A stretch of 28,278 nt of DNA from a bacterium (GCA_025980505.1 JAICXI010000001.1:1-28278); one strand, 5' to 3'; shown: positions 2,811 through 28,278, counted from the first letter of the stretch. Notes: generated by a model from the letters alone, not told the origin. Made by a program: numbers and translations.

Positions 2811-3884
2811 ATGACCTTGACCCGAGACTTCCTGAAGGGGGCCTGCCTCTCCTTTTTCGGCCTCCTGCTATCGGTTGAGATTTTCCTGCGCCTCACCGTC
2901 CCCTCCGGCCTCTGGTACCGCCATTTCGACTTCTCGGGCGACATGACCAGCCGGGCCGAACTGAGGGACCGCCTCCATTACGCCGTTCCGCCCGACCATC
3001 GGGTTCTCCTTTTAGGCGACAGCGTGTTGGGGGCGAGCGCCCTGATGGAACACCGCATTCCCCGGGCCCGGCTCACGACCCTTTCCCGGATTTTACGGGA
3101 AGGGCTCCGGTCGGAAGGTTTCAACGCCTTGAGCCTGGGCTCGGACGGGTTGCTTCTCCCGGACATCGAGGGGCTCACGGCCGAATGGAACGACCCGCAA
3201 CCTGAAAAAATCCTCCTCCTCCTCAATTTCCGAATGTTCTCCAGGGAATTCGCCGAAGGCTTCAAGGCCCTTTCCCGGGACTTCCTTTTAACCGACCTGC
3301 CCGAAGACATCCAAAAAAGACTGGCCCCCGAGACGCCTCCCGGCCAGGAAGCCCGCTTGAGCGACGGCCTGTACCAGGGAATGTGCGACCATTGGGTCCT
3401 TTTCCGGGAAACCCAGGCGGCCAAAACCCTCTGGTATTACCCGAGCCAGAAGGATTTCTTCCAGCGGCTGCTGGAGGGGGTTGTGGGACGCAATGACATG
3501 GAAGCGGACATCCTCGAGGCGGCCTTGAAACAAAAGGTGGCCCCCTATTACCAGGCCTACTCCTGGGATCCCGATGCCTTGCCGCTGACCTGCCTCAAAA
3601 GGATCCTGGATCTTTGGAGCCGGGCCCGCCTGCCGGTGACGGTCGTCTTGACGCCCCAAAACGAGCGGTTCTTGGGGAGCTATCTGGACAAGCCCAGCTT
3701 TCAAAAAAACCGGAAGACTTTGTCGTCCTTCCTGAAGACATACACCCGCCGGGGAATGGTTTACAAAGATTGGTCGGGGAAATACCCCTCTTCCTTTTTC
3801 CTCGACCACTGCCACTTGACGCCCGAGGGCAACCGGCGATATGCCGCGGACCTCCAAGTTCTCTTGGAAGGGAAAGGGCGATGA
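2811..3884 (+). CDS. SGNH-fold acyltransferase/esterase, DltD/AlgJ/PatB-like, N-terminal membrane anchor
   Basis: N-terminal TM (CLSFFGLLLSVEIFL), block I LLGDS and block V FLDHCHL (DxxH) give an intact Ser-Asp-His triad. Coupled to the next genes by ATGA and TAAATG junctions. Confidence 0.8.
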   Translation: MTLTRDFLKGACLSFFGLLLSVEIFLRLTVPSGLWYRHFDFSGDMTSRAELRDRLHYAVPPDHRVLLLGDSVLGASALMEHRIPRARLTTLSRILREGLRSEGFNALSLGSDGLLLPDIEGLTAEWNDPQPEKILLLLNFRMFSREFAEGFKALSRDFLLTDLPEDIQKRLAPETPPGQEARLSDGLYQGMCDHWVLFRETQAAKTLWYYPSQKDFFQRLLEGVVGRNDMEADILEAALKQKVAPYYQAYSWDPDALPLTCLKRILDLWSRARLPVTVVLTPQNERFLGSYLDKPSFQKNRKTLSSFLKTYTRRGMVYKDWSGKYPSSFFLDHCHLTPEGNRRYAADLQVLLEGKGR

Positions 3885-4003
3885 CCCCCGGTGATTTCTG
3901 GAAAGGTTTCGGGATCGGGGTGGTTTTATTCGCCTTGTTCCTTGCCATCCTCCTTTTTTCCGGCGACCTTTCGGCTTCCAAATTCATTTATGTGGATTTT
4001 TAA
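3881..4003 (+). CDS. DltX-like 40-aa membrane peptide with C-terminal FIYxxF acyl-shuttle motif
   Basis: MTPGDFWKGFGIGVVLFALFLAILLFSGDLSASKFIYVDF*. ATG overlaps the upstream TGA, and its TAA abuts the MBOAT ATG. One TM helix; C-terminus matches the DltX-type FIY-x-x-F. Confidence 0.85.
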   Translation: MTPGDFWKGFGIGVVLFALFLAILLFSGDLSASKFIYVDF

Positions 4004-7286: not shown

Positions 7287-7805
7287 TTGAAGAAACTATT
7301 ATTGGTGATGGGGATGTTTTTGACTTCAGTACCCATCTTCGCCCAAGAGACCCCTGCGGCGTCGACTTACTTGGCGGCTCCCACGCCGGCCGCCAGCCCC
7401 CTGTCCCGGGTCATTCCAAAATGGAGCATGTCGGCGGTGCCTTGGGACGCATGGTTCAAGGACAACGCCATGGTCACGGACAAGACCGACTATGTCCATT
7501 TCTTCTGGAATGCCCAGGACTTCAAGGCCAACTTCGAGGTGAAGGAGAAAAAGAAGAGACTGGCGGAGGCCGCCCTTCAACTGGTGTCGCGTCTTTACCC
7601 GTCGGATGCCAAGGCCGACTTAGTGAAGGTGGATATCGTGTATGTCCTGGAAAGGGATGTCTATGGCCAACCCAAGTGGGACAGCCTCCAACAAGTGGCC
7701 CACTTGGAATTCTTGCGGTCCAAGGACTCCAAGCTAGCTAAAACCAAAAAGGAACCCTCCGACGAAGCGCTCCAAAAAGCTTTTGACAAGTTCGATTTAT
7801 TTTAA
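7287..7805 (+). CDS. Secreted hypothetical protein, 172 aa
   Basis: TTG start at 7287 after AAGGAGG (7274-7280); signal peptide MKKLLLVMGMFLTSVPIFA|QE; Ala/Pro linker. Stop overlaps the next ATG (TAATG). The 6996 start in the ORF track overlaps the upstream gene and is rejected. Confidence 0.8.
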   Translation: MKKLLLVMGMFLTSVPIFAQETPAASTYLAAPTPAASPLSRVIPKWSMSAVPWDAWFKDNAMVTDKTDYVHFFWNAQDFKANFEVKEKKKRLAEAALQLVSRLYPSDAKADLVKVDIVYVLERDVYGQPKWDSLQQVAHLEFLRSKDSKLAKTKKEPSDEALQKAFDKFDLF

Positions 7806-9772
7806 TGAAAATTATTTTATTTTTAATCCTGATTTGGTTTCCGACGATGAGCTGCTGGGCGCTGTCGCCCATGCAAAGCTTCCAGGACTTGGTGGCGGGT
7901 GAAGGAACCGATGGATTGAAAGATGGGCCTTTTTATTCGGCACTTTTTCATTCACCCACGGGATTGGCTCTTAATTCCAACGGAAGCAAGTTATATGTCG
8001 CCGATCGGGAAAACAACTGCATCCGGGTTGTAGACCTGGCCGCAGGAAACTATGTTTCCACTTTAACGGGCTGTCTTGAGGCGGGCTATTTGGATGGGCC
8101 CCTTTCCAAGGCACGGTGGAATGGACCCATTGGGTTGATTTACCTGCCGGGTGACCGCTTGGTGGTCAATGATACGGGCAACAAGAGGATCCGAGAGATC
8201 GATTTGCAGGAAAAAACGGTTCAAACGTTGGCTGGAAACGGTCAAACAGGACTCCAAGATGGAAAGGGTCTTCAAAATCCGTTGGGGCCCATTTGGAGCA
8301 TGGCTTACCTTCCCGCCCAAGATTCGGTTTATTTCACCCAGCCAGATTTTAAGGCACTCCGGCGGTTGAAATTGGGAAGCGGGGAAGTTTCGACTGTCTT
8401 TTCGGAGGAGCCACGGCTTCCCCGTCCCACGGCCCTTTTTGTCATGGACGAAAAAATCTATATCGCCGAAGGCGATGAGGGGCAGGTTTACGAACTCATT
8501 CCCCATGACAAGGTTGAAAAAATCGACGCGAGTGCTTTTGATTGGGTGTCTCTGGGAAAGGGCGGGAAGATATTGTGCCTTGCGGGTTCGGACGGGACTT
8601 TGTACGCCTTGCGTACCGATGAGCATTTCCCTTTGGTTCGGTTTTCACCTCAAGCAACTCCGGTGGGCCTTTTGACCGTTTGGGGGGGCCCAATCCAAGA
8701 TTCACTCTCCGGGACTTTCTTTAAGGATGTTTTATCCCCTTCGCCCATGGCCATGGTTGTCGATCCCCGTACGCCGCACAAATTTTATATCGCCCACCCT
8801 CTTTTAAATATTGTGACTTCTTTCCGTGACCTGTGTTTGACCGAACGGGGTGGACTTTGGAATTTAAACAAGGGAGGGCTTACCGACTTTGATTACCCTT
8901 TTTCAAAACCGCCGGGGGTATACCGTATTCTTCTGGTGGGCGATTCCCACATCATGACAATTGCGGGACAAGGACCAACGCTCTCCGTTTTCAAGGCGAA
9001 TATGGAGACGCTGGCCAAAAGGATGGAGCTGATGCTTAATACCCTCGCGGCCATGGAAGACCTACCAACCCGTTTTGAGGTGCTGACGGATGGGAGAGTT
9101 GCCGGCGAAGTCTTAAATCTGTGGCCCTATTATTCCGTTCCTGCGATCGCACAGAAGTACGATATTGACACAGTGCTTTTTTGTTTGACGCCTAACTACA
9201 CCGATTACGTGTATTTTCTCAGGCCTTTAACGAAGGAAGGTATTCCTTCCGAAAAGGACGACCCTGAATATATTTTAAAGCCGATCCAGGATAGGATTCC
9301 GGAAGGATTGCCGCGCCGATTTATCGAACTTTGTCAGGCAAAAAATTTGGTATCTATTGAGGGAAACCAATTTCATTTCTCTCCATTGGCGGATCTGGTT
9401 CAAGATTCCCAAATAAGAAAGTGTATGGTCGATCTCTATAGCCGCCCCTTGAAGTTACTGAAGGAAAAACTGGCTTCTCAAAAGACATCCGGCGGACATG
9501 CCGGAAATTTGGATATCTGTTTGATACCTTGGGCAAAATTTTACCCTTTTGAAAAGGAAAAACCCTTTTGGGAAGACGTACTCAAGGAAGTCGGAGGACC
9601 CTCCACGGATCTTTCCGACCTTTTGACGGCCTTTCGTGTTAGTTTTTATCCTCTTTCGGAGATAGATGGGAACGATCATTACACCGCCGAAGGACAGGGG
9701 CTGATTGCTTTTGTGTTGACCCAGGAATTGATTCGCCAGAAACTCTTTCCTTTTTCATCCTCTCAAAAATGA
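7805..9772 (+). CDS. Secreted NHL-repeat + SGNH-like domain protein (paralog 3)
   Basis: Signal peptide MKIILFLILIWFPTMSCWA|LSPM; NHL repeats (FHSPTGLALNSNGSKLYVADRENNCIRVVD); KPPGVYRILLVGDS; GNDHYTAEG. Confidence 0.85.
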   Translation: MKIILFLILIWFPTMSCWALSPMQSFQDLVAGEGTDGLKDGPFYSALFHSPTGLALNSNGSKLYVADRENNCIRVVDLAAGNYVSTLTGCLEAGYLDGPLSKARWNGPIGLIYLPGDRLVVNDTGNKRIREIDLQEKTVQTLAGNGQTGLQDGKGLQNPLGPIWSMAYLPAQDSVYFTQPDFKALRRLKLGSGEVSTVFSEEPRLPRPTALFVMDEKIYIAEGDEGQVYELIPHDKVEKIDASAFDWVSLGKGGKILCLAGSDGTLYALRTDEHFPLVRFSPQATPVGLLTVWGGPIQDSLSGTFFKDVLSPSPMAMVVDPRTPHKFYIAHPLLNIVTSFRDLCLTERGGLWNLNKGGLTDFDYPFSKPPGVYRILLVGDSHIMTIAGQGPTLSVFKANMETLAKRMELMLNTLAAMEDLPTRFEVLTDGRVAGEVLNLWPYYSVPAIAQKYDIDTVLFCLTPNYTDYVYFLRPLTKEGIPSEKDDPEYILKPIQDRIPEGLPRRFIELCQAKNLVSIEGNQFHFSPLADLVQDSQIRKCMVDLYSRPLKLLKEKLASQKTSGGHAGNLDICLIPWAKFYPFEKEKPFWEDVLKEVGGPSTDLSDLLTAFRVSFYPLSEIDGNDHYTAEGQGLIAFVLTQELIRQKLFPFSSSQK

Positions 9773-9775
9773 TTT

Positions 9776-9823
9776 CCTTCCGCAGAACTCCAAAAAATTT
9801 TTGACAAGTTTGATATTTTCTGA
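9776..9823 (+). pseudogene. Relic second copy of the 3' end of the 172-aa gene
   Basis: Reads PSAELQKIFDKFDIF* versus PSDEALQKAFDKFDLF* of the 7287-7805 gene; 9789-9823 vs 7771-7805 match at 28/35 nt by manual alignment. Confidence 0.75.
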
Positions 9824-11741: not shown

Positions 11742-12968
11742 ATGAAAGTTCGCTTGTTTGGAGCCTTTTCACTTCTCGCTTTTGCCTCCATCCTGGTCAC
11801 CGGCTGTCCCGGCAACAGTCCCACTTCCCCGGCGGCACCCACCGCCACCTTCACCTTTACCGATACGCCCTGCATGAATGCCGGCGGCACGCCCTGCACC
11901 TCCACGCCAACCTTCACGGACACGGATACGGCCACGGACACGGCCACCGGCACGCCGACCAGCACCGGGACCAGCACCTATACCAGGACCTTCACCTTTA
12001 CGGCCACCGATACGGCCACCGCCACTTCCACGGGGACGCCGACCAGTACGCCCACGGTTACCGATACCCCGACCATCACGGATACGCCGACCGAGACCTT
12101 GAGCCCCACCCCGACGGGTTCGGATACGGCGACCTTCACGCGAACCAGCACGCCTTCGTCGACACCAACCAAAACATCAACCAATACACCTGTCGTGCCG
12201 ACCAACACGGCTACCCTGTGTCCCACCCAAAGCTTCACGCCGACCCCCCTTGCTAACGGCTATTCCATCTCGGGAAGCGTCGGTTTTTCGGGAACTGGGG
12301 TGAACGGATCCCACCCCCTCCAAGTCGTGGCTTTTGATACGAATGGAAACAATGGAAACCCCTACGACCTGGTGACCACCAACAACAGTTCCTATACAAT
12401 CCAGGGACTTTCGGCGGGCGCCACTTATATGGTTGTGGCCTTCTTCAACCCCTCCGTCACCGGGTTTAGCTGGCCCCCGGCGCTGGGCAGCTATGCCGCG
12501 ATGTATGGGACCTCCTCCTGCACCGTCAGCCTTGCGTCGCCCATCATCGTGAGCGGTGCCATGACCAGCAAGAACGTCACGATTGGGACCGCCAATCTCA
12601 TCAACGGTTACGGCGGGACCGCCAGTTACAGCGGAAGCTTGGGACGCGTGGATGGGTGCCATGGAATCATCGTCGAGCTTTTCCCGACCGGCACGACGCT
12701 TTACGGCGCTTCCAACAGCGTTACGGCCGTCAGCAGCAACAACGACGCCTATGTGCAAACCAACGGAGGGAGTTTCACCCTGGTGGGGGGCAAGGGCGGC
12801 GGTAACGCCTGCGCCGGCCAAACGGTGAACATCCTGGCCTACTATAACGCGGGGACAGGGGGCTGTTGCGGCATCCAGTCCGGCGACCCCTATGTGTTCC
12901 TGCAAAACCAGGCTTCCGGCACCTCGCCGAGCCTCACGATCAGCCTGACGGATTCCCAAACTTATTGA
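11742..12968 (+). CDS. Lipoprotein with Thr-rich stalk (paralog B)
   Basis: AAGGAG RBS; ILVTG|C22; same [16 protein letters not shown]...CMNAxGTPC N-terminus as paralog A; divergent C-terminal region. Confidence 0.85.
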   Translation: MKVRLFGAFSLLAFASILVTGCPGNSPTSPAAPTATFTFTDTPCMNAGGTPCTSTPTFTDTDTATDTATGTPTSTGTSTYTRTFTFTATDTATATSTGTPTSTPTVTDTPTITDTPTETLSPTPTGSDTATFTRTSTPSSTPTKTSTNTPVVPTNTATLCPTQSFTPTPLANGYSISGSVGFSGTGVNGSHPLQVVAFDTNGNNGNPYDLVTTNNSSYTIQGLSAGATYMVVAFFNPSVTGFSWPPALGSYAAMYGTSSCTVSLASPIIVSGAMTSKNVTIGTANLINGYGGTASYSGSLGRVDGCHGIIVELFPTGTTLYGASNSVTAVSSNNDAYVQTNGGSFTLVGGKGGGNACAGQTVNILAYYNAGTGGCCGIQSGDPYVFLQNQASGTSPSLTISLTDSQTY

Positions 12969-12992
12969 ACCGGGCGAAAGAACGGGTTTTAC

Positions 12993-13023
12993 AAAGCCCG
13001 GGCCGAAAGGCCCGGGCTTTTTT
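12993..13023 (+). terminator. Rho-independent terminator
   Basis: Perfect 12-bp stem AAAGCCCGGGCC-GAAA-GGCCCGGGCTTT plus T run. Confidence 0.9.
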
Positions 13024-13051
13024 ATTTGGGTTTTTCACGGTCGGATGTTCC

Positions 13052-13080
13052 TTGAAATGGGCCTTTTTTCCGAATAAACT
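13052..13080 (+). promoter_or_regulatory. Sigma70-type promoter for tRNA-Val
   Basis: TTGAAA-N17-TAAACT followed by a GC-rich stretch, 41 nt upstream of the tRNA. Confidence 0.6.
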
Positions 13081-13121
13081 ACGTCCCCCAAAGGGCGGGT
13101 CCGCCCGCGCTTGACGACCTT

Positions 13122-13198
13122 GGACATTTAGCTCAGCTGGTTAGAGCGTCGCGTTCACATCGCGAAGGTCACTGGTTCGAGTCCAGTAATGTCCACCA
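13122..13198 (+). tRNA. tRNA-Val (anticodon CAC)
   Basis: 77-nt cloverleaf: acceptor GGACATT/AATGTCC, D stem GCTC/GAGC, anticodon arm TCGCG-TTCACAT-CGCGA, T arm ACTGG-TTCGAGT-CCAGT, encoded CCA. Confidence 0.98.
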
Positions 13199-13201
13199 TC
13201 C

Positions 13202-13239
13202 AAACCCGTACTTCCCGTTAGGGAAGTACGGGTTTTTTT
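13202..13239 (+). terminator. Rho-independent terminator after tRNA-Val
   Basis: Perfect 15-bp stem AAACCCGTACTTCCC-GTTA-GGGAAGTACGGGTTT plus T run. Confidence 0.9.
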
Positions 13240-13267
13240 ATTGGGACAGGACTGGAGGAGAACCAGG

Positions 13268-13342
13268 AAGGGGTATGGGGAAGGCTTCCCCATGCCGTTG
13301 AAAGGGGTCCACAGGGGGGATTTCCCCTGTGGGAGCGAAGCG
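13268..13342. repeat. Double-hairpin REP-like element, copy A
   Basis: AAGGGGTATGGGGAAGGCTTCCCCATGCCGTTGAAAGGGGTCCACAGGGGGGATTTCCCCTGTGGGAGCGAAGC aligns end to end with 19739-19806. Confidence 0.75.
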
Positions 13343-13343
13343 A

Positions 13344-13368
13344 GGTTCGATGTCCGTCATGGCCACCA
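13344..13368 (+). repeat. Degenerate duplicate of the tRNA-Val 3' end (att-like relic)
   Basis: GGTTCGATGTCCGTCATGGCCACCA vs tRNA 13174-13198 GGTTCGAGTCCAGTAATGTCCACCA: 19/25 ungapped. Confidence 0.6.
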
Positions 13369-13457
13369 CCTGAACCGCCCTCCCCGGAAGAAGAGGAGCG
13401 GTTTTTGGTTGGGAGGGATGCCAACCTGACACTTCTCATGGTCCATCCGCCGCCCTC

Positions 13458-13466
13458 TGCTACAAT
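13458..13466 (+). promoter_or_regulatory. Extended -10 promoter, probably giving a leaderless SRAP mRNA
   Basis: TG-C-TACAAT ends 6 nt before ATG 13473; no Shine-Dalgarno sequence. Confidence 0.5.
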
Positions 13467-13472
13467 ACCCGC

Positions 13473-14156
13473 ATGTGCTCGCGATTCGTCCTTAAAAGCA
13501 CCTCGAAAACCGTCGCCCGCTTGCTCCAATTGGAGAAAACCCTCGATTGGAAACCCCGCTATAACGTGGCGCCTTCCCAGAAGATCCCGGCGGTCCTCCG
13601 TCCCTTGGGCAACAAGCAACGGGAGATGAAGCTTCTGCAGTGGGGGTTCGTGGCTTCCTGGACCCAGGGCGGGAGGCTTTTGGTGAACGTGCAAAGCGAG
13701 AACATCGGCGAGAAACCCCTCTTGGCCGAATCCTTTGAGAAGTGGCGCTGCCTCATTCCCGCTTTTTACGAGTGGCGGCACGAAGCCAGGGAAACCCGGC
13801 CCTACTATATCCGGATGAAGGACGGGCAACCTTTCGCTTTGGCCGGTTTATGGGCCCCCCAAAAATTGGAGGACAAGACGCTGGAAGTCTGCGCCATCCT
13901 GACCACCACGCCCAACGAAGTGGTGCGGGTGGTCCACGACCGGATGCCGGTGATCGTGGGCCCCCGGCATTACGACCTGTGGCTCAATTCGGAGGATGTG
14001 CGGGATTTCCGGGAGATCGAAAAGCTCTTCCGCCCTTACCCGGCAGACGGGATGGAAGTCCGCCAGGTAAGCGCCTGGGTCAACAACGTCGCGCATGACG
14101 ACGAGAAATGCATCGAGCCGTCCAACGAGCCCGAAACGATGTCCTTCGACTTCTAA
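13473..14156 (+). CDS. SOS response-associated peptidase (SRAP/YedK/HMCES family), abasic-site protecting protein
   Basis: N-terminal MCSRF (Cys2), RYNVAPSQ, FYEW, FALAGLW, HDRMPVI. Confidence 0.92.
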   Translation: MCSRFVLKSTSKTVARLLQLEKTLDWKPRYNVAPSQKIPAVLRPLGNKQREMKLLQWGFVASWTQGGRLLVNVQSENIGEKPLLAESFEKWRCLIPAFYEWRHEARETRPYYIRMKDGQPFALAGLWAPQKLEDKTLEVCAILTTTPNEVVRVVHDRMPVIVGPRHYDLWLNSEDVRDFREIEKLFRPYPADGMEVRQVSAWVNNVAHDDEKCIEPSNEPETMSFDF

Positions 14157-14231
14157 ACAGGCCCTTCAATAACCCAAACCCGCTGGGCTCGCGGCGGCGC
14201 CTTTGGCATTCCCAAGGCGGCTTGGAAAATC

Positions 14232-14699
14232 CTATTTCCGGTTTCCACGGAAGACGGCGGAATTGTCGGGCGTTTCCCAAAGCCCCACTTCGGCCAAGCG
14301 GACCTTCTCCCTTTGGAGGGACGGCTCCAACAGCTTCCAAATGACCTGGGCCATGTTTTCAGCGGTGGGTTGGAAAGCCGGGTTGGTTTTAAAAGGCTCC
14401 ACTTCCTTGTTGATGAAACGGTGGTCGAAGCGGGCGAAAACCTCCCTTTTCAGGATCTCCTTCAGCACGCGGAAATCCATCACGAACCCCGTGGAGGGGT
14501 CCACCCGCCCCCGCACCGCCACCCTCAGCCGGTAGGAATGGCCGTGGGGATAATGGGAGGCCTTGGGGTCGTCCTTGCGGTAACCCGAGCATTTCCGGAA
14601 GACCTCCAGGTTCTTGGCGCGGTCCCATTTTGGATTATGCAGGTAATGGGCGGCCTCGAAGGTGATTTCCTTGGCGATTTCAGCTGGAATTTTTTCCAT
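14232..14699 (-). CDS. queD: 6-carboxytetrahydropterin / 6-pyruvoyl-tetrahydropterin synthase (QueD/PTPS family)
   Basis: ATG at 14699 after GAGG; FEAAH, C...HGHSY, DPSTGFVMDF, PTAENMA, VGLWETP. Confidence 0.85.
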   Translation of the reverse strand: MEKIPAEIAKEITFEAAHYLHNPKWDRAKNLEVFRKCSGYRKDDPKASHYPHGHSYRLRVAVRGRVDPSTGFVMDFRVLKEILKREVFARFDHRFINKEVEPFKTNPAFQPTAENMAQVIWKLLEPSLQREKVRLAEVGLWETPDNSAVFRGNRK

Positions 14700-14838
14700 A
14701 AAAACCTCATGCGAAATGAACTTGAAAGGCCCCGTCCACCGCTGCTTTGACGACCCGGTTAGTTTCCGGATCGATTTTTTTGACCGGCCGCCCGGTTTTA
14801 TCAAGGCTTGAATCCCTTTGCGTCTCGGCGTCCTTGCG

Positions 14839-16488
14839 TCAAAGGGTTTGGCCTTCCTTGAATTTCTGGGCGATCGGCACGCGGCGGCCCATTCCGAAGG
14901 CCTTGGTGGTCACCTTCAGGCCCGGCGCCATCTGGCGGCGCTTGTATTCGTTGGCGTTGACCTTCCTTACGATATCCCTTACCAGCTGAGGCTCGAAGCC
15001 GGCCTTCACGATTTTGGCGGGAGGCATGTTCTCCTCGATGTACAACCGCAAAACCGCATCCAGGGTCTCGTAAGGCGGGAGGGAATCCTGGTCGGTTTGG
15101 TTGGGCCGAAGTTCGGCGGAAGGGGGCTTGGCGAAAACGGCCTCGGGGATCAGGGGGCCCTTGCGGTTGGCGTGGCGGGACAACTGGTAAACCATGACCT
15201 TGGGCACGTCGGAAATGACCGCCAGGCCGCCGCACATATCGCCGTAAAGGGTGCAGTAACCCACGGAAAGCTCGCTCTTGTTGCCGGTGGAAAGCACCAA
15301 CCGGTTGAACTTGTTGGAAAGGGCCATGAGGATCAGTCCCCGCAGGCGGGCCTGCAGGTTTTCCTCGGTGGCGTCCTTGGGAAGGCCCTTGAAAACCGGC
15401 TCGAAGGTCTTCAGGGTTTCCTCGAAAAGGGGGGTGATGGGCATCTCGTTGAACCCGATTCCCAAGGCTTGGGACAACTGGCGGGAATCCTCGATGGAAC
15501 CGCGGGAGGAGAAGGGCGAGGGCATGGTGACGCCCATGACGTTTTCAGGGCCGAGGGCCTCGGCGGCGAGGACCGCCACCAGGGCCGAATCAATCCCGCC
15601 CGAAAGGCCGATCAACACCTTTTCAAAGCCGCACTTGCGCACGTAATCCCGGGGCCCCGTCACCAGGGCCTGGTAAATGGTTCCGATTTCGCTTGGCGCC
15701 GGGGCGGCGGGTTTGAGCGACGGATTTTCGGTGTCGTAAACCAGCAGGTCCTCCTCGAAGGCTCGGCCCGTTTGAAAAAGGTTTCCCCCTCCGTCCAGGA
15801 CCATGCTGCAGCCGTCGAACACCAACTCGTCGTTCCCGCCCACCAAGTTGCAATAAAGGACCGGCGCCTTGGCCTTTTGGGTCACTTCCTGGAGCAGGGC
15901 CCGGCGCACGGGAAGCTTGGCCACGTGAAAGGGGGAGGCCGAAAGGTTCAGGACCAGGTCGGGTTTTTCCTTGGCCAGCTGGGCCACCGGGTCGTAGGAA
16001 TAAAGGCGGTTCGTGAAAACGCCTTCCATGTTCCAGATATCCTCGCAGAGGGTGACGCCGATCTTGAGCCCGCAATAACGCAGGAGGGGTTCGGGTTTGG
16101 AGGCGGGGGCGAAATAACGCGCTTCGTCGAAGACGTCGTAATTGGGGAGAAGGGCCTTCTTATAGGTATAAAGCACGCGGCCGTCCTTGACGCCCACGGC
16201 GGCGTTGTAAAGGGGGTTGCCGCTGCCCTTGTTTTCCAGGATGGTGCCGACGAGGGCCAGGATGCCGCGGGCTTCCCGCGCCACCTGGTCGAGGGCCCTT
16301 TGGGCGGCCTCGAAAAAGGAAAGGCGGTCCAGGAGGTCCCGGGGGGGATAACCGGTGAGGGTTAATTCGGGGAAAAGGGCCAGCTCGCAGCCGGCGGCCC
16401 GGGCCTGGTCCAGTCCTTGGGCGACTTTTTTCACATTGCCGTCGAAGTCCCCGACGGTGGTATTGATTTGGCAGACGGCGATTTTCAT
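14839..16488 (-). CDS. nadE: Glutamine-dependent NAD+ synthetase
   Basis: Start MKIAVCQIN at 16488. Nitrilase-type glutaminase domain (FPELTLTGYPP, KKALLPNYDVFDEARYF, CEDIW) plus synthetase domain (GLSGGIDS, TGNKSE, GYCTLYGD, PPSAELRPNQTD). Confidence 0.97.
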   Translation of the reverse strand: MKIAVCQINTTVGDFDGNVKKVAQGLDQARAAGCELALFPELTLTGYPPRDLLDRLSFFEAAQRALDQVAREARGILALVGTILENKGSGNPLYNAAVGVKDGRVLYTYKKALLPNYDVFDEARYFAPASKPEPLLRYCGLKIGVTLCEDIWNMEGVFTNRLYSYDPVAQLAKEKPDLVLNLSASPFHVAKLPVRRALLQEVTQKAKAPVLYCNLVGGNDELVFDGCSMVLDGGGNLFQTGRAFEEDLLVYDTENPSLKPAAPAPSEIGTIYQALVTGPRDYVRKCGFEKVLIGLSGGIDSALVAVLAAEALGPENVMGVTMPSPFSSRGSIEDSRQLSQALGIGFNEMPITPLFEETLKTFEPVFKGLPKDATEENLQARLRGLILMALSNKFNRLVLSTGNKSELSVGYCTLYGDMCGGLAVISDVPKVMVYQLSRHANRKGPLIPEAVFAKPPSAELRPNQTDQDSLPPYETLDAVLRLYIEENMPPAKIVKAGFEPQLVRDIVRKVNANEYKRRQMAPGLKVTTKAFGMGRRVPIAQKFKEGQTL

Positions 16489-16495
16489 GGGGCCC

Positions 16496-16528
16496 CAGCT
16501 GGCAGCTGGCAGCCGGCGGCTGGCAGCT
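16496..16528. repeat. Heptamer tandem repeat (CAGCTGG)x4.7 in the nadE 5' leader
   Basis: CAGCTGG CAGCTGG CAGCCGG CGGCTGG CAGCT. Confidence 0.8.
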
Positions 16529-16594
16529 TGTGTTAAATTAAAGCGCCTTAGTTTAAGGTGTACGGGGCGGTAAGTCAAAAAGGAGGAGAGGGGA

Positions 16595-17107
16595 TTGATT
16601 TTCGGGGTTTTGGCCGATACGGGAGGCCTGTTGACGGCCGCGCAACTCACGGCGCTGAAAAAGGCCTTCAAGGGAGTGGACGTCATCCTGCATGCGGGTC
16701 CGGTGGGGGATTTGCGGGTCCTGGAACAGCTCTCCAAGATAGCGTCCACCAAGGCCGTGTGCGGCAACGCGGAAAGCTTCATTGTCCGCAGCGAACTTTA
16801 CGTGCGGCAGGCCTGGCGCGTGGGACCCGTGGCGCTGGGGCTGGTGCACGGCTACGGCAAGCCCCACGGCCTCAAGCACTGGCTTTTGAAACAGTTTGAG
16901 GAAGATCCGGTGCAAGTCATCGTCTATGGGCGCAATTTCGAACCCACGGCCCGGCAAATCGGGCCCACCTATTTCTTCAGCCCCGGCTCCTTTTCGGGCA
17001 ATCTTCCCGAGGGACAGCACGGGAAAAAGGGCCCCTCCCGGGTGGGATTGCTCTTTGTCCACGGCAAAAAAGTCGACGGCCAGCCCGGCCTCACCCTGTC
17101 CCCTTGA
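16595..17107 (+). CDS. Metallophosphoesterase-fold protein (YfcE/MJ0936/Vps29-like) with degenerate metal site
   Basis: TTG start after GGAGAGG; motif order ADTG, HAGP, GNAE, VHG, GRNF, SPGS corresponds to SDTH, HAGD, GNxD, HG, GHTH, NPGS. Confidence 0.8.
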   Translation: MIFGVLADTGGLLTAAQLTALKKAFKGVDVILHAGPVGDLRVLEQLSKIASTKAVCGNAESFIVRSELYVRQAWRVGPVALGLVHGYGKPHGLKHWLLKQFEEDPVQVIVYGRNFEPTARQIGPTYFFSPGSFSGNLPEGQHGKKGPSRVGLLFVHGKKVDGQPGLTLSP

Positions 17108-17134
17108 CGGTCCTCCTCCCAAGATCGGTATAAT
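17104..17134 (+). promoter_or_regulatory. Possible sigma70 promoter for iscA/erpA
   Basis: TTGACG-N19-TATAAT; spacer longer than optimal. Confidence 0.4.
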
Positions 17135-17232
17135 GTCAAGGAGAAGGGGTTCGGTCTGGAATCCAAGGGGCTGCCTGAATTGAAAACGTTCCCTGGTTTG
17201 AGTATCCCGAAAAGCGGGGCGGCGAGGAAGAT

Positions 17233-17556
17233 ATGGTCCAATTAACCGAGACGGCCGTCAATAAGGTCAAGGATTTCGCGGCGAAGAACCCTTCATATGC
17301 GGGAAAGAATTTCCGGGTGTACGTCCAAGGCGGAGGTTGCCGGGGTTTTTCCTACGGGTTCACCTTCGACCAAAAGCGCAAGGACGATGAAATTAACAAG
17401 ACCGGCGACGTGGAAATCCTGGTCGACCCCCAGAGCGCCAAATATTTGAACGGTTCCAGGATCGACTATGTGGATGATTACCGTGGATCGGGTTTTGTCA
17501 TCGACAACCCCAATAGCACGGGCTCCTGCGGCTGCGGCCATTCCGCCAGCTTTTAA
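17233..17556 (+). CDS. A-type Fe-S cluster carrier (IscA/ErpA/HesB family)
   Basis: VQGGGCRGFSYG, IDYVDD, NPNSTGSCGCGHS; three Cys ligands; GAGG RBS. Confidence 0.95.
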   Translation: MVQLTETAVNKVKDFAAKNPSYAGKNFRVYVQGGGCRGFSYGFTFDQKRKDDEINKTGDVEILVDPQSAKYLNGSRIDYVDDYRGSGFVIDNPNSTGSCGCGHSASF

Positions 17557-17596
17557 CGAAGCGCGCCGATGGGTTCCAATTCGCGAGGCGGGCTCC

Positions 17597-17618
17597 AAGC
17601 GGCTTTGGCCGCTTTTTT
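17597..17618 (+). terminator. Rho-independent terminator
   Basis: AAGCGGC-TTTG-GCCGCTT followed by T run. Confidence 0.7.
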
Positions 17619-17621
17619 CTT

Positions 17622-18359
17622 TTGGGGAGGTATTCCATCCAATATTCAAATTCCCACGTCCCCGATTCCGCCGCGAAGTGGCGGTGGATCCCCTCTTCCT
17701 GCGTACCGACCCCGGGCCAGATGGCTTACGACGGCGAACTGTTCAAGCGGTTCCGGACCCTGGACCGGCCGATCCTGCGATTCTTCTTTTTCGAGCGGCC
17801 CACCCTGACGCTGGGCCGGCTTGAGTCCCGGCGCCTGGCGTTGGATTCCCTTCCCTATCCCTATGAAATCCGTCCTACCGGGGGACGGGCGGTGTTGCAC
17901 GGTGAAGGAGATCTTTGTTATTCCATCGTGGCTTCCACGGCCGATTCCCGGGTGGGCGGGGAACTGCTGGAAAGCTACCGCAAGATCAGCGGGCTCCTGG
18001 CCTATGCCTTGCGCGGCTTGGACCGGGAAGTCCGGCTTTCCCAGGAAAGGCATGTGGGCCTGGAGGCGGGCCATTGTTTTTCCGCGCCGTCCTTCGCCGA
18101 GTTGACCCTTCACGGCAAGAAAGTGGCCGGCGGGGCGCAGGCCCGTGAAGGCGGGGTGTTCCTCCAGCAAGGCGTGATCCTGCTATCGGTGGCCGAGGGT
18201 TGGGACGGTCTCTTCCCGGGCCCGGCCGCCGCGGCCATGGCGGGGTTGAACGACGATCCCTCCCTCCCCGCCGTCAGCCGCGCCGATGTGGAACGTTCGG
18301 TGGCCGCGGCCTTCGAGGAAACGGGTGTCGTGTTGGAAAGGCATTTCGCCGCCATATGA
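17622..18359 (+). CDS. lipM: Octanoyltransferase LipM-like (lipoate-protein ligase family)
   Basis: QMAYD, TLTLG, RPTGGRAVLH, HCFSAPS..EL...GKKVAGGAQ...LQQG, matching the LipM-type CFxxPS Cys and the conserved Lys; start codon uncertain. Confidence 0.8.
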   Translation: MGRYSIQYSNSHVPDSAAKWRWIPSSCVPTPGQMAYDGELFKRFRTLDRPILRFFFFERPTLTLGRLESRRLALDSLPYPYEIRPTGGRAVLHGEGDLCYSIVASTADSRVGGELLESYRKISGLLAYALRGLDREVRLSQERHVGLEAGHCFSAPSFAELTLHGKKVAGGAQAREGGVFLQQGVILLSVAEGWDGLFPGPAAAAMAGLNDDPSLPAVSRADVERSVAAAFEETGVVLERHFAAI

Positions 18360-18443
18360 TTTTCCTTATCCTGGGGGCCGCCGCCCCCGGGTAAAATCGT
18401 GGAACTTCCATCCGAGCCACTCTTGACGTGAAAGGGTTCGTCC

Positions 18444-19727
18444 GTGAAAAAGTTCGATGCAATGGTGGTGGGCGGCGGGCCGGGCGGCTACACCGCGGCC
18501 CTCCTGATCGCCCAACAAGGCAAATCCGTCGCCCTCTTTGAAAAAAGGAAAATCGGGGGTTCCTGCCTCCACGTGGGCTGCATCCCCACCAAGCTGCTGC
18601 AGTCCGCGGCCTACCGCTACCACACCCTGGCCCAGGAAGGCCGCTCCTGGGGCATCGAAGCCGACAATATCCGCTTCAACTTTCAAACCATAGTGGAACG
18701 CACCCAAAAGACCATCGCCATCCTGGAGAGGGGCATCCAATCCCAGCTTTCGGCCGCCCAAGTGACGGTGGTGCAGGGTGAGGCCCGGGTCAAGGCCCCC
18801 GACCGCGTGGACTGCAACGGGGAAGAGTATCAAGGATCGGCCCTTGTCCTGGCCTTGGGATCCCGGCCCCGGCACCTGCCCGCTTTTCCCGCGGGCGGCA
18901 ACATTGTCACCAGCGACGAACTCCTTTCCCAGCCCCGGCTGCCGAAGTCCCTTTTGATCGTGGGGGCGGGAGTCATCGGCTTGGAATTCGCTTGCCTTTA
19001 CGCCCAACTGGGGGTGAAGGTACGCATGGGAGAGGTGCTTCCCAAACTGCTCCCCAACATGGACGAGGACCTGGGCCAGGTGATCTTGAACGCGGTGCGC
19101 AAATTGGGCGTGGAAGTGGAACTGGGGCTGCTGGAAGTGGAGCCTCAAAACGAGGAACTCATCCTGGTTTCGGCGGGGCGGGTGCCCAATTCGGATTTGG
19201 CCGGCGTGGGCAACCTCCGGCTCAAGGCGCCCGGCGGGAAAATCGAAACCAACGGGCTCATGGAAACCTCCGTGCCGGGCGTCTTCGCGGTGGGCGACTT
19301 AACCGGCAAGTACCCCTACGCCCATACGGCTTACGAACATGCCCGCATCGCGGCGGGAAGGCTCCAAGGAGGCGGGGAGGAACTGGACGATTTCAAGGTT
19401 CCCCACGTGGTTTTCACCTCGCCTGAAATCGCGGCCGTGGGCTTCACCGAGTCCGAGGCCCGGATGCGGTTCAAGAACGTGAAGACCTTGAAGCACAATT
19501 TCGCCGCCAACAGCAAGGCCCGCATCTTGGGGGAAATCGGCGGGTGGTCCAAGACGGTTTACGACGGGGATTCGGGCGTAATCCTGGGCATGCACATGAC
19601 CGGGCCCGAAGCCACGGATCTGATCGGCGAAGCCTGCGTACTGGTCTCCCAAAAAATCACCCTGGACGCCCTCAACAAGGTGATTCACCCCCATCCTACT
19701 TTGAATGAGATATTTGGAATTCATTAA
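18444..19727 (+). CDS. lpdA: Dihydrolipoyl dehydrogenase (E3 / glycine cleavage L protein)
   Basis: GGGPGGY, GGSCLHVGCIP (redox disulfide), GAGVIGLE, FAVGD, HPTLNE. Confidence 0.93.
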   Translation: MKKFDAMVVGGGPGGYTAALLIAQQGKSVALFEKRKIGGSCLHVGCIPTKLLQSAAYRYHTLAQEGRSWGIEADNIRFNFQTIVERTQKTIAILERGIQSQLSAAQVTVVQGEARVKAPDRVDCNGEEYQGSALVLALGSRPRHLPAFPAGGNIVTSDELLSQPRLPKSLLIVGAGVIGLEFACLYAQLGVKVRMGEVLPKLLPNMDEDLGQVILNAVRKLGVEVELGLLEVEPQNEELILVSAGRVPNSDLAGVGNLRLKAPGGKIETNGLMETSVPGVFAVGDLTGKYPYAHTAYEHARIAAGRLQGGGEELDDFKVPHVVFTSPEIAAVGFTESEARMRFKNVKTLKHNFAANSKARILGEIGGWSKTVYDGDSGVILGMHMTGPEATDLIGEACVLVSQKITLDALNKVIHPHPTLNEIFGIH

Positions 19728-19738
19728 GGATGGGGGTG

Positions 19739-19806
19739 AAGGGGAGTGGGGGTGAGCCCCCACGGCTTGAGAAGGGTACACAGGGGAACTTCCCTGTGAG
19801 CGGAGC
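19739..19806. repeat. Double-hairpin REP-like element, copy B
   Basis: AAGGGGAGTGGGGGTGAGCCCCCACGGCTTGAGAAGGGTACACAGGGGAACTTCCCTGTGAGCGGAGC; same layout as 13268-13342. Confidence 0.75.
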
Positions 19807-19848
19807 CGCCCGCATCCTACTTTGAACGAGATATTTGGAATTCATTGA
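19807..19848 (+). repeat. Direct duplicate of the last 42 nt of lpdA
   Basis: 19807-19848 vs 19686-19727: 38/42 identical; reads RPHPTLNEIFGIH*(TGA) vs HPHPTLNEIFGIH*(TAA). Confidence 0.92.
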
Positions 19849-20084
19849 CAACAAGGTAGTTTGAACCGCGAAGACGCCAAGAAGGTCAAAAGTCCATGGG
19901 TTTTAAACGGCTATGAGTTTTGTCCTTCTTCTTGCCGTCCTTGGTGTCTCCGTGGGTCATCCTTCGCTTTGGGGTAAAAACTCTTTGCTTCCTAAGGCTT
20001 AAGCGTTTGCCCAATTCGCCGTTAGGAATCCTTGTGATGGAACGGATGGGATAGCTACAATAAGGTTTTACGAGGAGCAGCGGC

Positions 20085-20444
20085 ATGATGAAGAAGTTCA
20101 CGGTTCTTTTTTCAGCGGTTCTTTTGCTGGCGGCGGTTCCCGCGCTGGCCCAGCCCCCCCTGAAGGTCCTCTACAGCCAGACCACCTCGACGCACTTTAA
20201 TTGGACTTGGCCCTATCACCCGGTCCGCACCTATACCGCCACGCAAACCAAGCCTTATTACTACACGGGACGCATCCTCTATCTCGACACGCACATCAAC
20301 CCGGCCAAGTACCGTTTTTATTATCCCAACCGGACCTGCAAAAATACCTGGGGTTATTATTTCGCCCCCGACGCCCACCTTTGCAATCACAAGCCCTATC
20401 CCGTCTTTCCCCGCCCCACCTTGTACTATGAAACCATCCGGTAA
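20085..20444 (+). CDS. Secreted Tyr/Pro/Thr-rich hypothetical protein
   Basis: GAGGAG RBS; signal peptide MMKKFTVLFSAVLLLAAVPALA|QP; possible TTGTGA-N18-TACAAT promoter at 20032-20061. Confidence 0.8.
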   Translation: MMKKFTVLFSAVLLLAAVPALAQPPLKVLYSQTTSTHFNWTWPYHPVRTYTATQTKPYYYTGRILYLDTHINPAKYRFYYPNRTCKNTWGYYFAPDAHLCNHKPYPVFPRPTLYYETIR

Positions 20445-28122: not shown

Positions 28123-28278
28123 ATATTTAGCTTGGGAACGATGCACTGGGCGTCAGGTCCCAACAACCCCGTCCCTTGCGTCGCGGTTTGGATGGTTCCA
28201 TAGGGGTTATTCCCTAGGAGGGCTTTTGGGGAGATGGGGTGGGTGAGGGGTGTGGTGAAACCCATGAAATCATCCCCA

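Follow-up and report, generated by a model that had tools for sequence, protein, structure and literature searches.

CTXphi and the other integrative mobile elements exploiting Xer (IMEX) enter the chromosome through a folded attP(+) used by XerCD, in which direct and inverted target-like sites form a target-mimicking stem around a loop of ~90 nt; the attachment region holds no recombinase, and tandem arrays are common. The attC site of integron cassettes is a single-strand hairpin with a variable terminal structure and strand-specific folding, and the cassettes form arrays. Integrative elements that target tRNA genes, together with cis-mobilisable elements (CIMEs), bring a replacement 3′ end, leave the displaced one as a direct repeat, accrete in tandem and may lack an integrase. 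We report here on a short element, E, present twice in a 28,278-nt stretch of bacterial DNA (GCA_025980505.1, JAICXI010000001.1:1-28278, all of it hereafter called the window), which recalls each of these systems. It consists of a ~80-nt core of three hairpins, followed in most copies by a duplicate of the gene end lying upstream, and immediately preceded by an inverted copy of the first bases after the core. A search of the literature on double-hairpin and tRNA-duplication elements, on target duplications by REPINs (paired repetitive extragenic palindromic, or REP, sequences) and on folded attP sites at tRNA genes returned nothing comparable in bacteria, and E is undescribed as far as these searches go. 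It is best placed among the site-specific integrative elements, with a real chance of a new mechanism.

The window lies within a 2.44-Mb metagenome-assembled genome (MAG), 65% complete (G000), of candidate division FCPU426. A covariance model of the core, R1, was built from 11 copies and run over 31 genomes of the window's own family, which consists of uncultured soil bacteria, and over 68 from elsewhere in the phylum, spread across 22 families. Flanks were analysed for 120 E copies from the 31 genomes, of which 116 had sufficient flank for scoring duplications, with a window shifted by 100 nt as control. The unit that emerged has the architecture A-B-x-A′-E-A-B, where A-B is the duplicated gene end, A′ the reverse complement of A, and x an optional spacer, often a terminator. 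The first unit of the window is built as follows.

13122..13198, plus strand: tRNA-Val(CAC), target gene of copy 1 (ARAGORN; Rfam tRNA, 71.8 bits)
13174-13198, plus strand: upstream copy of the duplication, the last 25 nt of tRNA-Val, from G52/G53-T54 of the T arm to CCA (local alignment)
13205..13239, plus strand: spacer x, an intrinsic terminator with a 12-bp stem, GTTA loop and T7 (read from the sequence)
13254..13264, plus strand: A′, GGAGGAGAACC, an inverted T arm, variant of the GGATTCGAACC / GGACGAGAACC motif
13263..13342, plus strand: core E copy 1 (R1 76 bits, E 2e-16 for the genome; folds; covariation), with GGGGT and hairpin 1 at 13275-13293, TTGAAAGGGGTC and hairpin 2 at 13309-13332, and the GAGCGAAGC mini-hairpin (GCGAAGC) at 13335-13341
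13344..13368, plus strand: displaced tRNA-Val pseudo 3′ end, GGTTCGATGTCCGTCATGGCCACCA, which is the duplication's downstream copy
13375..13406, plus strand: second terminator, after the pseudo end

The second unit lies at the end of lpdA.

19686..19727, plus strand: functional lpdA 3′ end, which is the duplication's upstream copy (codons HPHPTLNEIFGIH and TAA)
19686-19696, plus strand: segment A, CACCCCCATCC, codons HPHP
19725-19727, plus strand: lpdA stop TAA
19728..19738, plus strand: A′, GGATGGGGGTG, directly after the stop, a perfect reverse complement of 19686-19696
19734..19808, plus strand: core E copy 2, beginning 7 nt past the lpdA stop (R1 62.7 bits, E 7e-13 for the genome; folds), with hairpin 1 at 19746-19763, hairpin 2 at 19779-19798 and a GCGGAGC mini-hairpin at 19800-19806
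19807..19848, plus strand: displaced lpdA end (CGC CCG CAT ... CAT TGA), contiguous with the native downstream flank

A sequence-only reading of the window had placed the two copies at 13268-13342 and 19739-19806, each followed by a gene-end duplicate of 25 to 42 nt. Both copies are real, the R1 E-values excluding a chance match, and so are the duplicates. In unit 1 the pseudo end is identical to the tRNA end at 19 of 25 positions, and its acceptor strand no longer matches the 5′ strand of the resident tRNA. GAACC, within A′, pairs with GGTTC at 13344-13348, and the motif of this A′ recurs before tRNA-type E copies in many genomes. The terminator that precedes A′ is unrelated to the trailer and terminator found behind tRNA-Val(CAC) in relatives with an empty site. 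The second terminator, by contrast, is related to theirs: in trailer and stem (CCTGAACCGCCCTCCCC...GGAGCGGTTTTT) it is similar to the native trailer and terminator of genomes G006 and G020. The locus itself is conserved and adjoins a SRAP-peptidase-like gene (13473-14156). It is occupied in G000 and G010 and empty in at least 14 genomes, while G012, G019 and G020 keep only remnants (A′ and part of hairpin 1).

At lpdA, the downstream segment is a 42-nt copy (last 13 codons and stop) identical at 38 of 42 positions, stop retained. The closing stem of this unit is predicted to be 12 bp long in both DNA and RNA folds (z -5.8 and -4.8). Among the 29 genomes scored, 8 are occupied and 21 empty, and both states occur inside three genera. 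The displaced copy begins at the first His codon of HPHP in every occupied genome, and an 11-12-nt complement of the HPHP codons follows the lpdA stop in all eight. The empty alleles that the sequence-only reading had called for thus exist at both sites.

The three hairpins of the core are hairpin 1, hairpin 2 and a mini-hairpin of the GCGAAGC type. Hairpin 2 has an 8-bp stem and a 6-nt loop in 68 of 100 copies, with GGGGTA before it and AGCG after it; both main hairpins are preceded by GGGGT(A), in a single orientation throughout. Covariation was measured on 54 distinct sequences. Paired states made up 96% of the cells, and cells with double changes numbered 71, against 19 in shuffles. The compensatory pair first noticed at the closing of hairpin 1 is therefore one of many, since such changes were found at 9 of the 13 modelled pairs. 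G.T wobbles outnumbered A.C (33 against 8), which shows that selection acts on one strand, in the same sense as the upstream gene, whether this strand folds as RNA or as DNA. Many tRNA genes of the family (L024, L039, L131 and other loci) also have behind them a minimal hairpin of terminator-like form, based on the GCGAAGC motif (TTTTGCGAAGCAAAA); its mini-hairpin is the same very stable one that closes the 3′ end of E at 13335-13341.

The genome-wide search that had been proposed brought out a family: R1 matched 30 of the 31 related genomes, with 1 to 34 matches each and more than 250 in total, and none of the 68 genomes of other families. When the exact core pattern was run against 185,579 species genomes, every match was an FCPU426-type MAG, and neither the core pattern nor unit 1 was matched in collections of viral contigs, phages and plasmids. 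BLAST of the window's MAG recovers just the two copies of the window. R1 finds four good ones, two of them outside the window, and full-length copies are present in other genera. Three weak 38-bit R1 matches on contig 10 of G045 were rejected as E; they belong to a different repeat of ~211 nt. The two additional copies of the MAG are:

contig C142: third copy, behind tRNA-Tyr
contig C415: fourth copy, in front of a tRNA-Met 5′ half

We then consider what follows the cores. In 79 of 116 copies (68%), against 12 (10%) in the shifted control, a segment situated 0-154 nt upstream of the core recurs after it, over 15 to 45 nt or more, so that E copies without a duplication are the minority. Of the remaining copies, many have shorter duplications (7-19 nt) or are second members of tandem arrays. 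The left boundary is fixed, the duplicate starting within -4 to +3 nt of the end of the model in 76 of 79 cases, and the length varies from 7 to about 100 nt, the copies often being diverged. A tRNA gene on the same strand lies within 300 nt upstream of 62 of the 120 copies, and one on the opposite strand upstream of none. The targets are the following.

tRNA 3′ ends: 44 copies with an intact tRNA directly in front, of 17 anticodon species
lpdA: last 13 codons, 8 genomes
argC: about 100 nt (~30 codons), two tandem units
intrinsic terminators: 3′ arm and T tract, e.g. after rplL (two genera)
tRNA-Met 5′ half: first 20 nt, three genera

Duplications of tRNA genes usually run from G53/T54 to CCA, then 5-40 nt further. 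No common target motif was found among the insertions, nor any motif shared across target classes in the stem sequences, and in ~120 copies no open reading frame (ORF) lies between the upstream and downstream copies. At the tRNA-Met target (G000 C415:2010-2160, L081, L114) the sequence downstream is the 5′ half of the gene only, up to the anticodon loop CTCATAA, then unrelated DNA. This half-gene case resembles the left end of integrase islands, and units and islands can abut at the same tRNA.

The inverted segment A′, immediately 5′ of the core, is 5 to 21 nt long and differs from copy to copy, matching each copy's own target. Pairing between the 5′ and 3′ flanks is accordingly copy-specific: over 119 copies its mean was -17.4 kcal/mol, against -13.6 for mismatched flanks, and none of 2000 permutations equalled it. 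In tRNA units the GGATTCGAACC / GGACGAGAACC motif is the inverted T arm, and in one tRNA-Gln unit A′ reaches 21 nt, an inverted copy of the whole 3′ end. In one terminator unit A′ is perfectly complementary to the 3′ arm although the native 5′ arm pairs with it imperfectly, which indicates that A′ was templated from the target and not copied from the old 5′ arm. Being complementary to the start of the duplicate, A′ forms with it a stem that imitates the duplex of the target and has E as its loop.

The history of the units was read from their distribution and from the divergence of their copies. Empty, occupied and decayed sites coexist within genera. In 40 of 62 cases a core shares its target with its nearest neighbour from another genome (7.7 expected, shuffle maximum 21), and the overall nearest core lies within the same genome for 8 of 62 only. 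Between the upstream and downstream copies of lpdA, in 7 genomes, there are ~42 synonymous and 8 non-synonymous codon changes; stops are mostly kept, and most of the non-synonymous changes fall on positions immediately preceding the C-terminal His, and these positions are variable among orthologues too. Since the differences are mainly synonymous, which is not predicted for a duplicate left drifting in situ, both copies have spent most of their divergence as working gene ends under coding constraint. Decay is seen in some downstream copies (His to Arg or Tyr, one stop lost, frameshifts in G023), and near-identical pairs exist as well (37 of 38 positions at lpdA in G020, 24 of 24 at tRNA-Leu(tag) in G044). 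In argC, the three copies make up a clean mosaic: native 5′/element 3′, then element/element, then element 5′/native 3′ with the native flank. In pseudo-tRNA ends, mismatches reach 16-22% at 4-12 nt into the copy and 5-8% in the acceptor strand, a pattern which fits hybrid sites whose element-specific part lies next to E, the crossover being further 3′. As the copies are often old and independently constrained, and the cores fall into target-specific lineages, it is probable that the duplications did not arise as target-site duplications during insertion, which would suit a cassette bearing its own version of the target. The small, non-autonomous, gene-end-targeting element imagined by the sequence-only reading is thus supported, with two corrections, one on the origin of the long duplications and the other on A′, which had been missed. 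The many fixed, conserved targets, the polymorphism within genera and the diverged gene ends together suggest homing between lineages rather than transposition within genomes.

The reading that we prefer, tentatively and without granting it quite an even chance, is that the E unit is a lineage-restricted, ORF-less, site-specific integrative cassette of ~100-250 nt. That the cassette brings a replacement gene end is moderately supported; it would stand in for the piece cut off, so that the host gene stays intact. The piece replaced would be the T loop to CCA in a tRNA, the last 13 codons in lpdA, ~30 codons in argC, and the 3′ arm and T tract in a terminator. Beyond this anatomy, we infer an integration of the Campbell type by a folded single strand. 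The cassette would move as a small circle or a folded single strand in which A′ pairs with A, rebuilding beside E a duplex mimic of the target, as in the attP(+) of CTXphi or, more loosely, the attC of integrons. A recombinase acting in trans would then carry out a single recombination event inside the carried copy of the target, between a small A-B circle and the chromosomal A-B. Hybrid upstream and downstream copies would result, the flanking direct repeats being the outcome of this one crossover, and deletion between them would account for loss of the unit. A bolder version, which we regard as doubtful, takes E units for minimal homing DNA, with a ~80-nt core recognised in single-stranded form by an enzyme of the host or of some other origin, and a specificity residing entirely in the target-templated stem.

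Several points weigh against the cassette reading. No linked recombinase, RAYT/Y1 transposase (REP-associated tyrosine transposase), reverse transcriptase or dedicated integrase was found for E, so that the linked enzyme for which the sequence-only reading had advised a search did not come to light among RAYT/Y1 proteins, reverse transcriptases or tyrosine recombinases. A Y1_Tnp/RAYT partner was rejected, as PF01797 occurs in 21 of 30 family genomes and also in 50 of 68 genomes devoid of E, while G018 and G020, both of high quality and with 12-14 E copies, lack it. An RVT_1 reverse transcriptase was rejected as well, its distribution being patchy and not tracking E. A signature of reverse transcription at m1A58 (1-methyladenosine 58), suggested by changes in the pseudo T-loop, was dropped because the duplications extend 5-40 nt beyond CCA, into untranscribed or unprocessed flank. 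Among ~120 copies, none is a full-length parent element with genes between the copies. The acquisition of A, B and A′ for a new target is left unexplained by the model. The case for an incoming copy rests on segments of 40-100 nt, in a setting where genomes of the same genus are already ~20% diverged in lpdA. Similar patterns could also be left if relatives exchanged an old insertion allele by homologous recombination, and clustering of cores by target would be equally expected from vertical inheritance of ancient insertions. Finally, no circle, empty-allele joint or free form was seen: three DNA runs and one RNA run (Logan contigs, share at most 0.22) covering 12900-20100 showed no joint at either unit, a result uninformative on mobility or transcription, and placed both units in one strain.

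Rival accounts were weighed on the same observations. In one, which we judge unlikely, the insertion itself makes the duplication: an E-bound nickase, for example of the HUH Rep-like type, nicks the left edge of A, strand-displacement synthesis recopies A-B, a template switch of the polymerase onto the element and the displaced flap creates A′, and the old strand is religated. The fixed left boundary with a length of 7 to ~100 nt would follow naturally, as would an A′ templated from the target, including the perfect terminator-arm complement; the three stable hairpins, with the DNA-type GCGAAGC mini-hairpin and folding of one strand, and the near-identical copies at tRNA-Leu(tag) in G044 and lpdA in G020 are also in its favour. 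It does not account well for the many pairs that have strongly diverged, at synonymous sites only, nor for cores that cluster by target and not by genome, and so give no indication that E spreads to new sites inside one genome. Spacer x, moreover, often holds a terminator unrelated to the one behind the downstream copy, and Y1 HUH genes do not co-vary with E, none being present in G018 and G020. Quite unlikely, in our estimation, is the proposal that E and its closing stem are a vertically inherited, host-beneficial RNA or DNA module of 3′ ends (a terminator or insulator, a signal for processing or stability, or a landing pad for a protein), the duplications being by-products of unequal crossing-over and copy-paste. 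Pairing is selected in the transcribed sense, E always stands behind tRNAs, terminators and gene ends in the same orientation as they, cores that share a target resemble each other from genus to genus, and unequal crossing-over accounts for the tandem arrays. A needed module, however, would hardly show patchy occupancy even within genera and common remnants; its function leaves the inverted and direct copies of the neighbour unaccounted for, and transcription of E is doubtful because the units usually stand behind a terminator. The same proposal draws on a sub-threshold, full-length match to an orphan two-hairpin small RNA motif, Clostridiales-2 (RF02937; 30.6 bits, E 2e-5). The two window cores (13261-13340 and 19734-19806) score 30.6 and 18.5 bits against a gathering threshold of 58.6. 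Like E, the motif comprises two hairpins with a repeated G-rich pentamer in front of each, and the alignment spans the full model. Its metagenomic instances, unlike E, have a conserved 3′ extension and no flanking duplication: among 58 metagenomic loci with the conserved half of the motif, duplications were scored in 5, against 3 of 58 in the control. The Clostridiales-2 lead was set aside on the score and on these counts, and a relationship is at most a possibility.

The units might also be collapsed islands, that is, attL and attR of tyrosine-integrase elements joined by internal deletion, with E as the attP arm region; we hold this to be very unlikely. The T-loop sublocation in tRNA genes, the direct repeats of tRNA 3′ ends and tandem accretion are classical for integrase elements, and integrase genes are found in every genome of the family, 8 to 35 in each. 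A conserved integrase of 365-367 amino acids lies just upstream of a tRNA and unit in G001, G022 and G045. In G001 it belongs to an island of 24.3 kb beside a unit (L318 = G001:C2:1168000-1187999; L322:516-555), whose cargo includes a PIN protein, a type III restriction-modification system, a TraG-like coupling protein and the 367-aa tyrosine integrase. This island, however, sits on the 5′ side of tRNA-Ser(TGA): its 40-nt repeat is the first 40 nt of the tRNA, with the crossover in the anticodon loop, and no E-like sequence is found at its ends. Since the island uses the 5′ half of the tRNA and ends without E, adjacency of the integrase was rejected as linkage to E and reflects shared targeting of tRNA genes. 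Homologous integrases occupy the equivalent position in G022, ahead of a tRNA-Arg that is degenerate, and in G045, ahead of another pseudo-tRNA. None of the ~120 units has genes between its copies, and the targets include terminator arms and coding ends. An attP arm acts as duplex DNA, for which hairpin covariation with G.T wobbles is not expected, and A′ is without counterpart in such att sites.

Set beside the described systems, E differs from each of them. CTXphi and IMEX use dif, whereas E has numerous targets without relation to one another (tRNA T arms, lpdA, argC, terminators); in E the conserved part is the loop and not the stem, and the unit is gene-less and 100-250 nt long. Compared with integron cassettes, E is without the R and L boxes (RYYYAAC/GTTRRRY) and without an ORF, its stem is copied from the target, and no attI/IntI platform was found. 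Integrative elements of tRNA genes and CIMEs share with E the 3′ direct repeats behind an intact gene (44 copies, 17 anticodon species). They measure kilobases and have duplex att arms, with no inverted target copy or multi-hairpin core, and for E neither an integrase of its own nor an integrase-bearing parent was found. Such elements are not known to target terminator arms. Integration of adeno-associated virus (AAV) at AAVS1 gives a partial target duplication, and the stem of its inverted terminal repeat (ITR) closes two hairpin arms next to GAGC-type repeats. In topology this recalls E, and in target duplication it recalls the nickase rival above. AAV is a eukaryotic virus whose stem is of viral sequence, and no Rep-like gene is linked to E. 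REP sequences, their bacterial interspersed mosaic elements (BIME) and REPINs are, like E, short, GC-rich, extragenic hairpins behind genes and lineage specific; E differs by the absence of a GTAG head, by 1-34 copies per genome, by the lack of co-variation with Y1, and by target-specific lineages and long duplications, and it is not a single imperfect palindrome in inverted doublets. The inverted repeats around E are not constant for the element and the duplications are not of a fixed 2-14 bp, as they would be in miniature inverted-repeat transposable elements (MITEs). Nor does E have the fixed target motif of palindrome-associated transposable elements (PATEs) derived from IS200/IS605, and in E duplication is the rule.

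A true MITE is present at the end of the window. The sequence at 28194-28265, proposed earlier as a possible degenerate E copy with swapped modules, turned out to be the left half of an unrelated MITE with terminal inverted repeats, having in common with E only a module like hairpin 2. It occupies 28132-28278, where it is cut by the contig end, measures ~230 bp in full, and has more than 40 copies in the window's MAG, plus short deletion variants. Its terminal inverted repeats are perfect (GGAACGATGCACTTGGCGTCAG...), and one of its several internal hairpins is homologous to hairpin 2 of E. Full copies are, for example:

G000 C205:1471-1700
G000 C410:1293-1553

In relatives, a related composite repeat holds a whole E core between CCCTCGCCC and GGGATGAGGG.

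Other gene-end duplications were encountered apart from E. In the window, 7771-7805 and 9789-9823 are 28/35 identical and both end in a stop; they enclose a whole gene of 655 aa (7805-9772), without an E core, and may represent a gene-sized cassette with a carried replacement end, or an unrelated event. In G045, a 110-nt direct repeat with 94% identity (L134:2346-2455 and 3857-3966, contig C10) lies at the ends of neighbouring genes, among copies of the ~211-nt repeat mentioned above. Duplication of gene ends thus seems common in the family, even apart from E units.

If integration through a folded mimic is true, the single-strand principle of CTXphi and integrons would be extended from one fixed site to many, the choice of site being made by a copied stem in a unit of 100-250 nt. 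Were the minimal-homing version to hold, any conserved gene end adjacent to a hairpin could be captured, replaced and transmitted between species, by a natural, reprogrammable, site-specific insertion cassette that encodes no protein. With integration through a folded mimic, E may be a 'MITE equivalent' of integrative elements and a possible template for small programmable insertion systems, and the units would show how the ends of essential genes (tRNA, lpdA, argC) become mosaics of foreign and native sequence. For the annotation of FCPU426 genomes, pseudo tRNA ends, duplicated gene tails and doubled terminators are footprints of E, rather than assembly errors or scars of islands.

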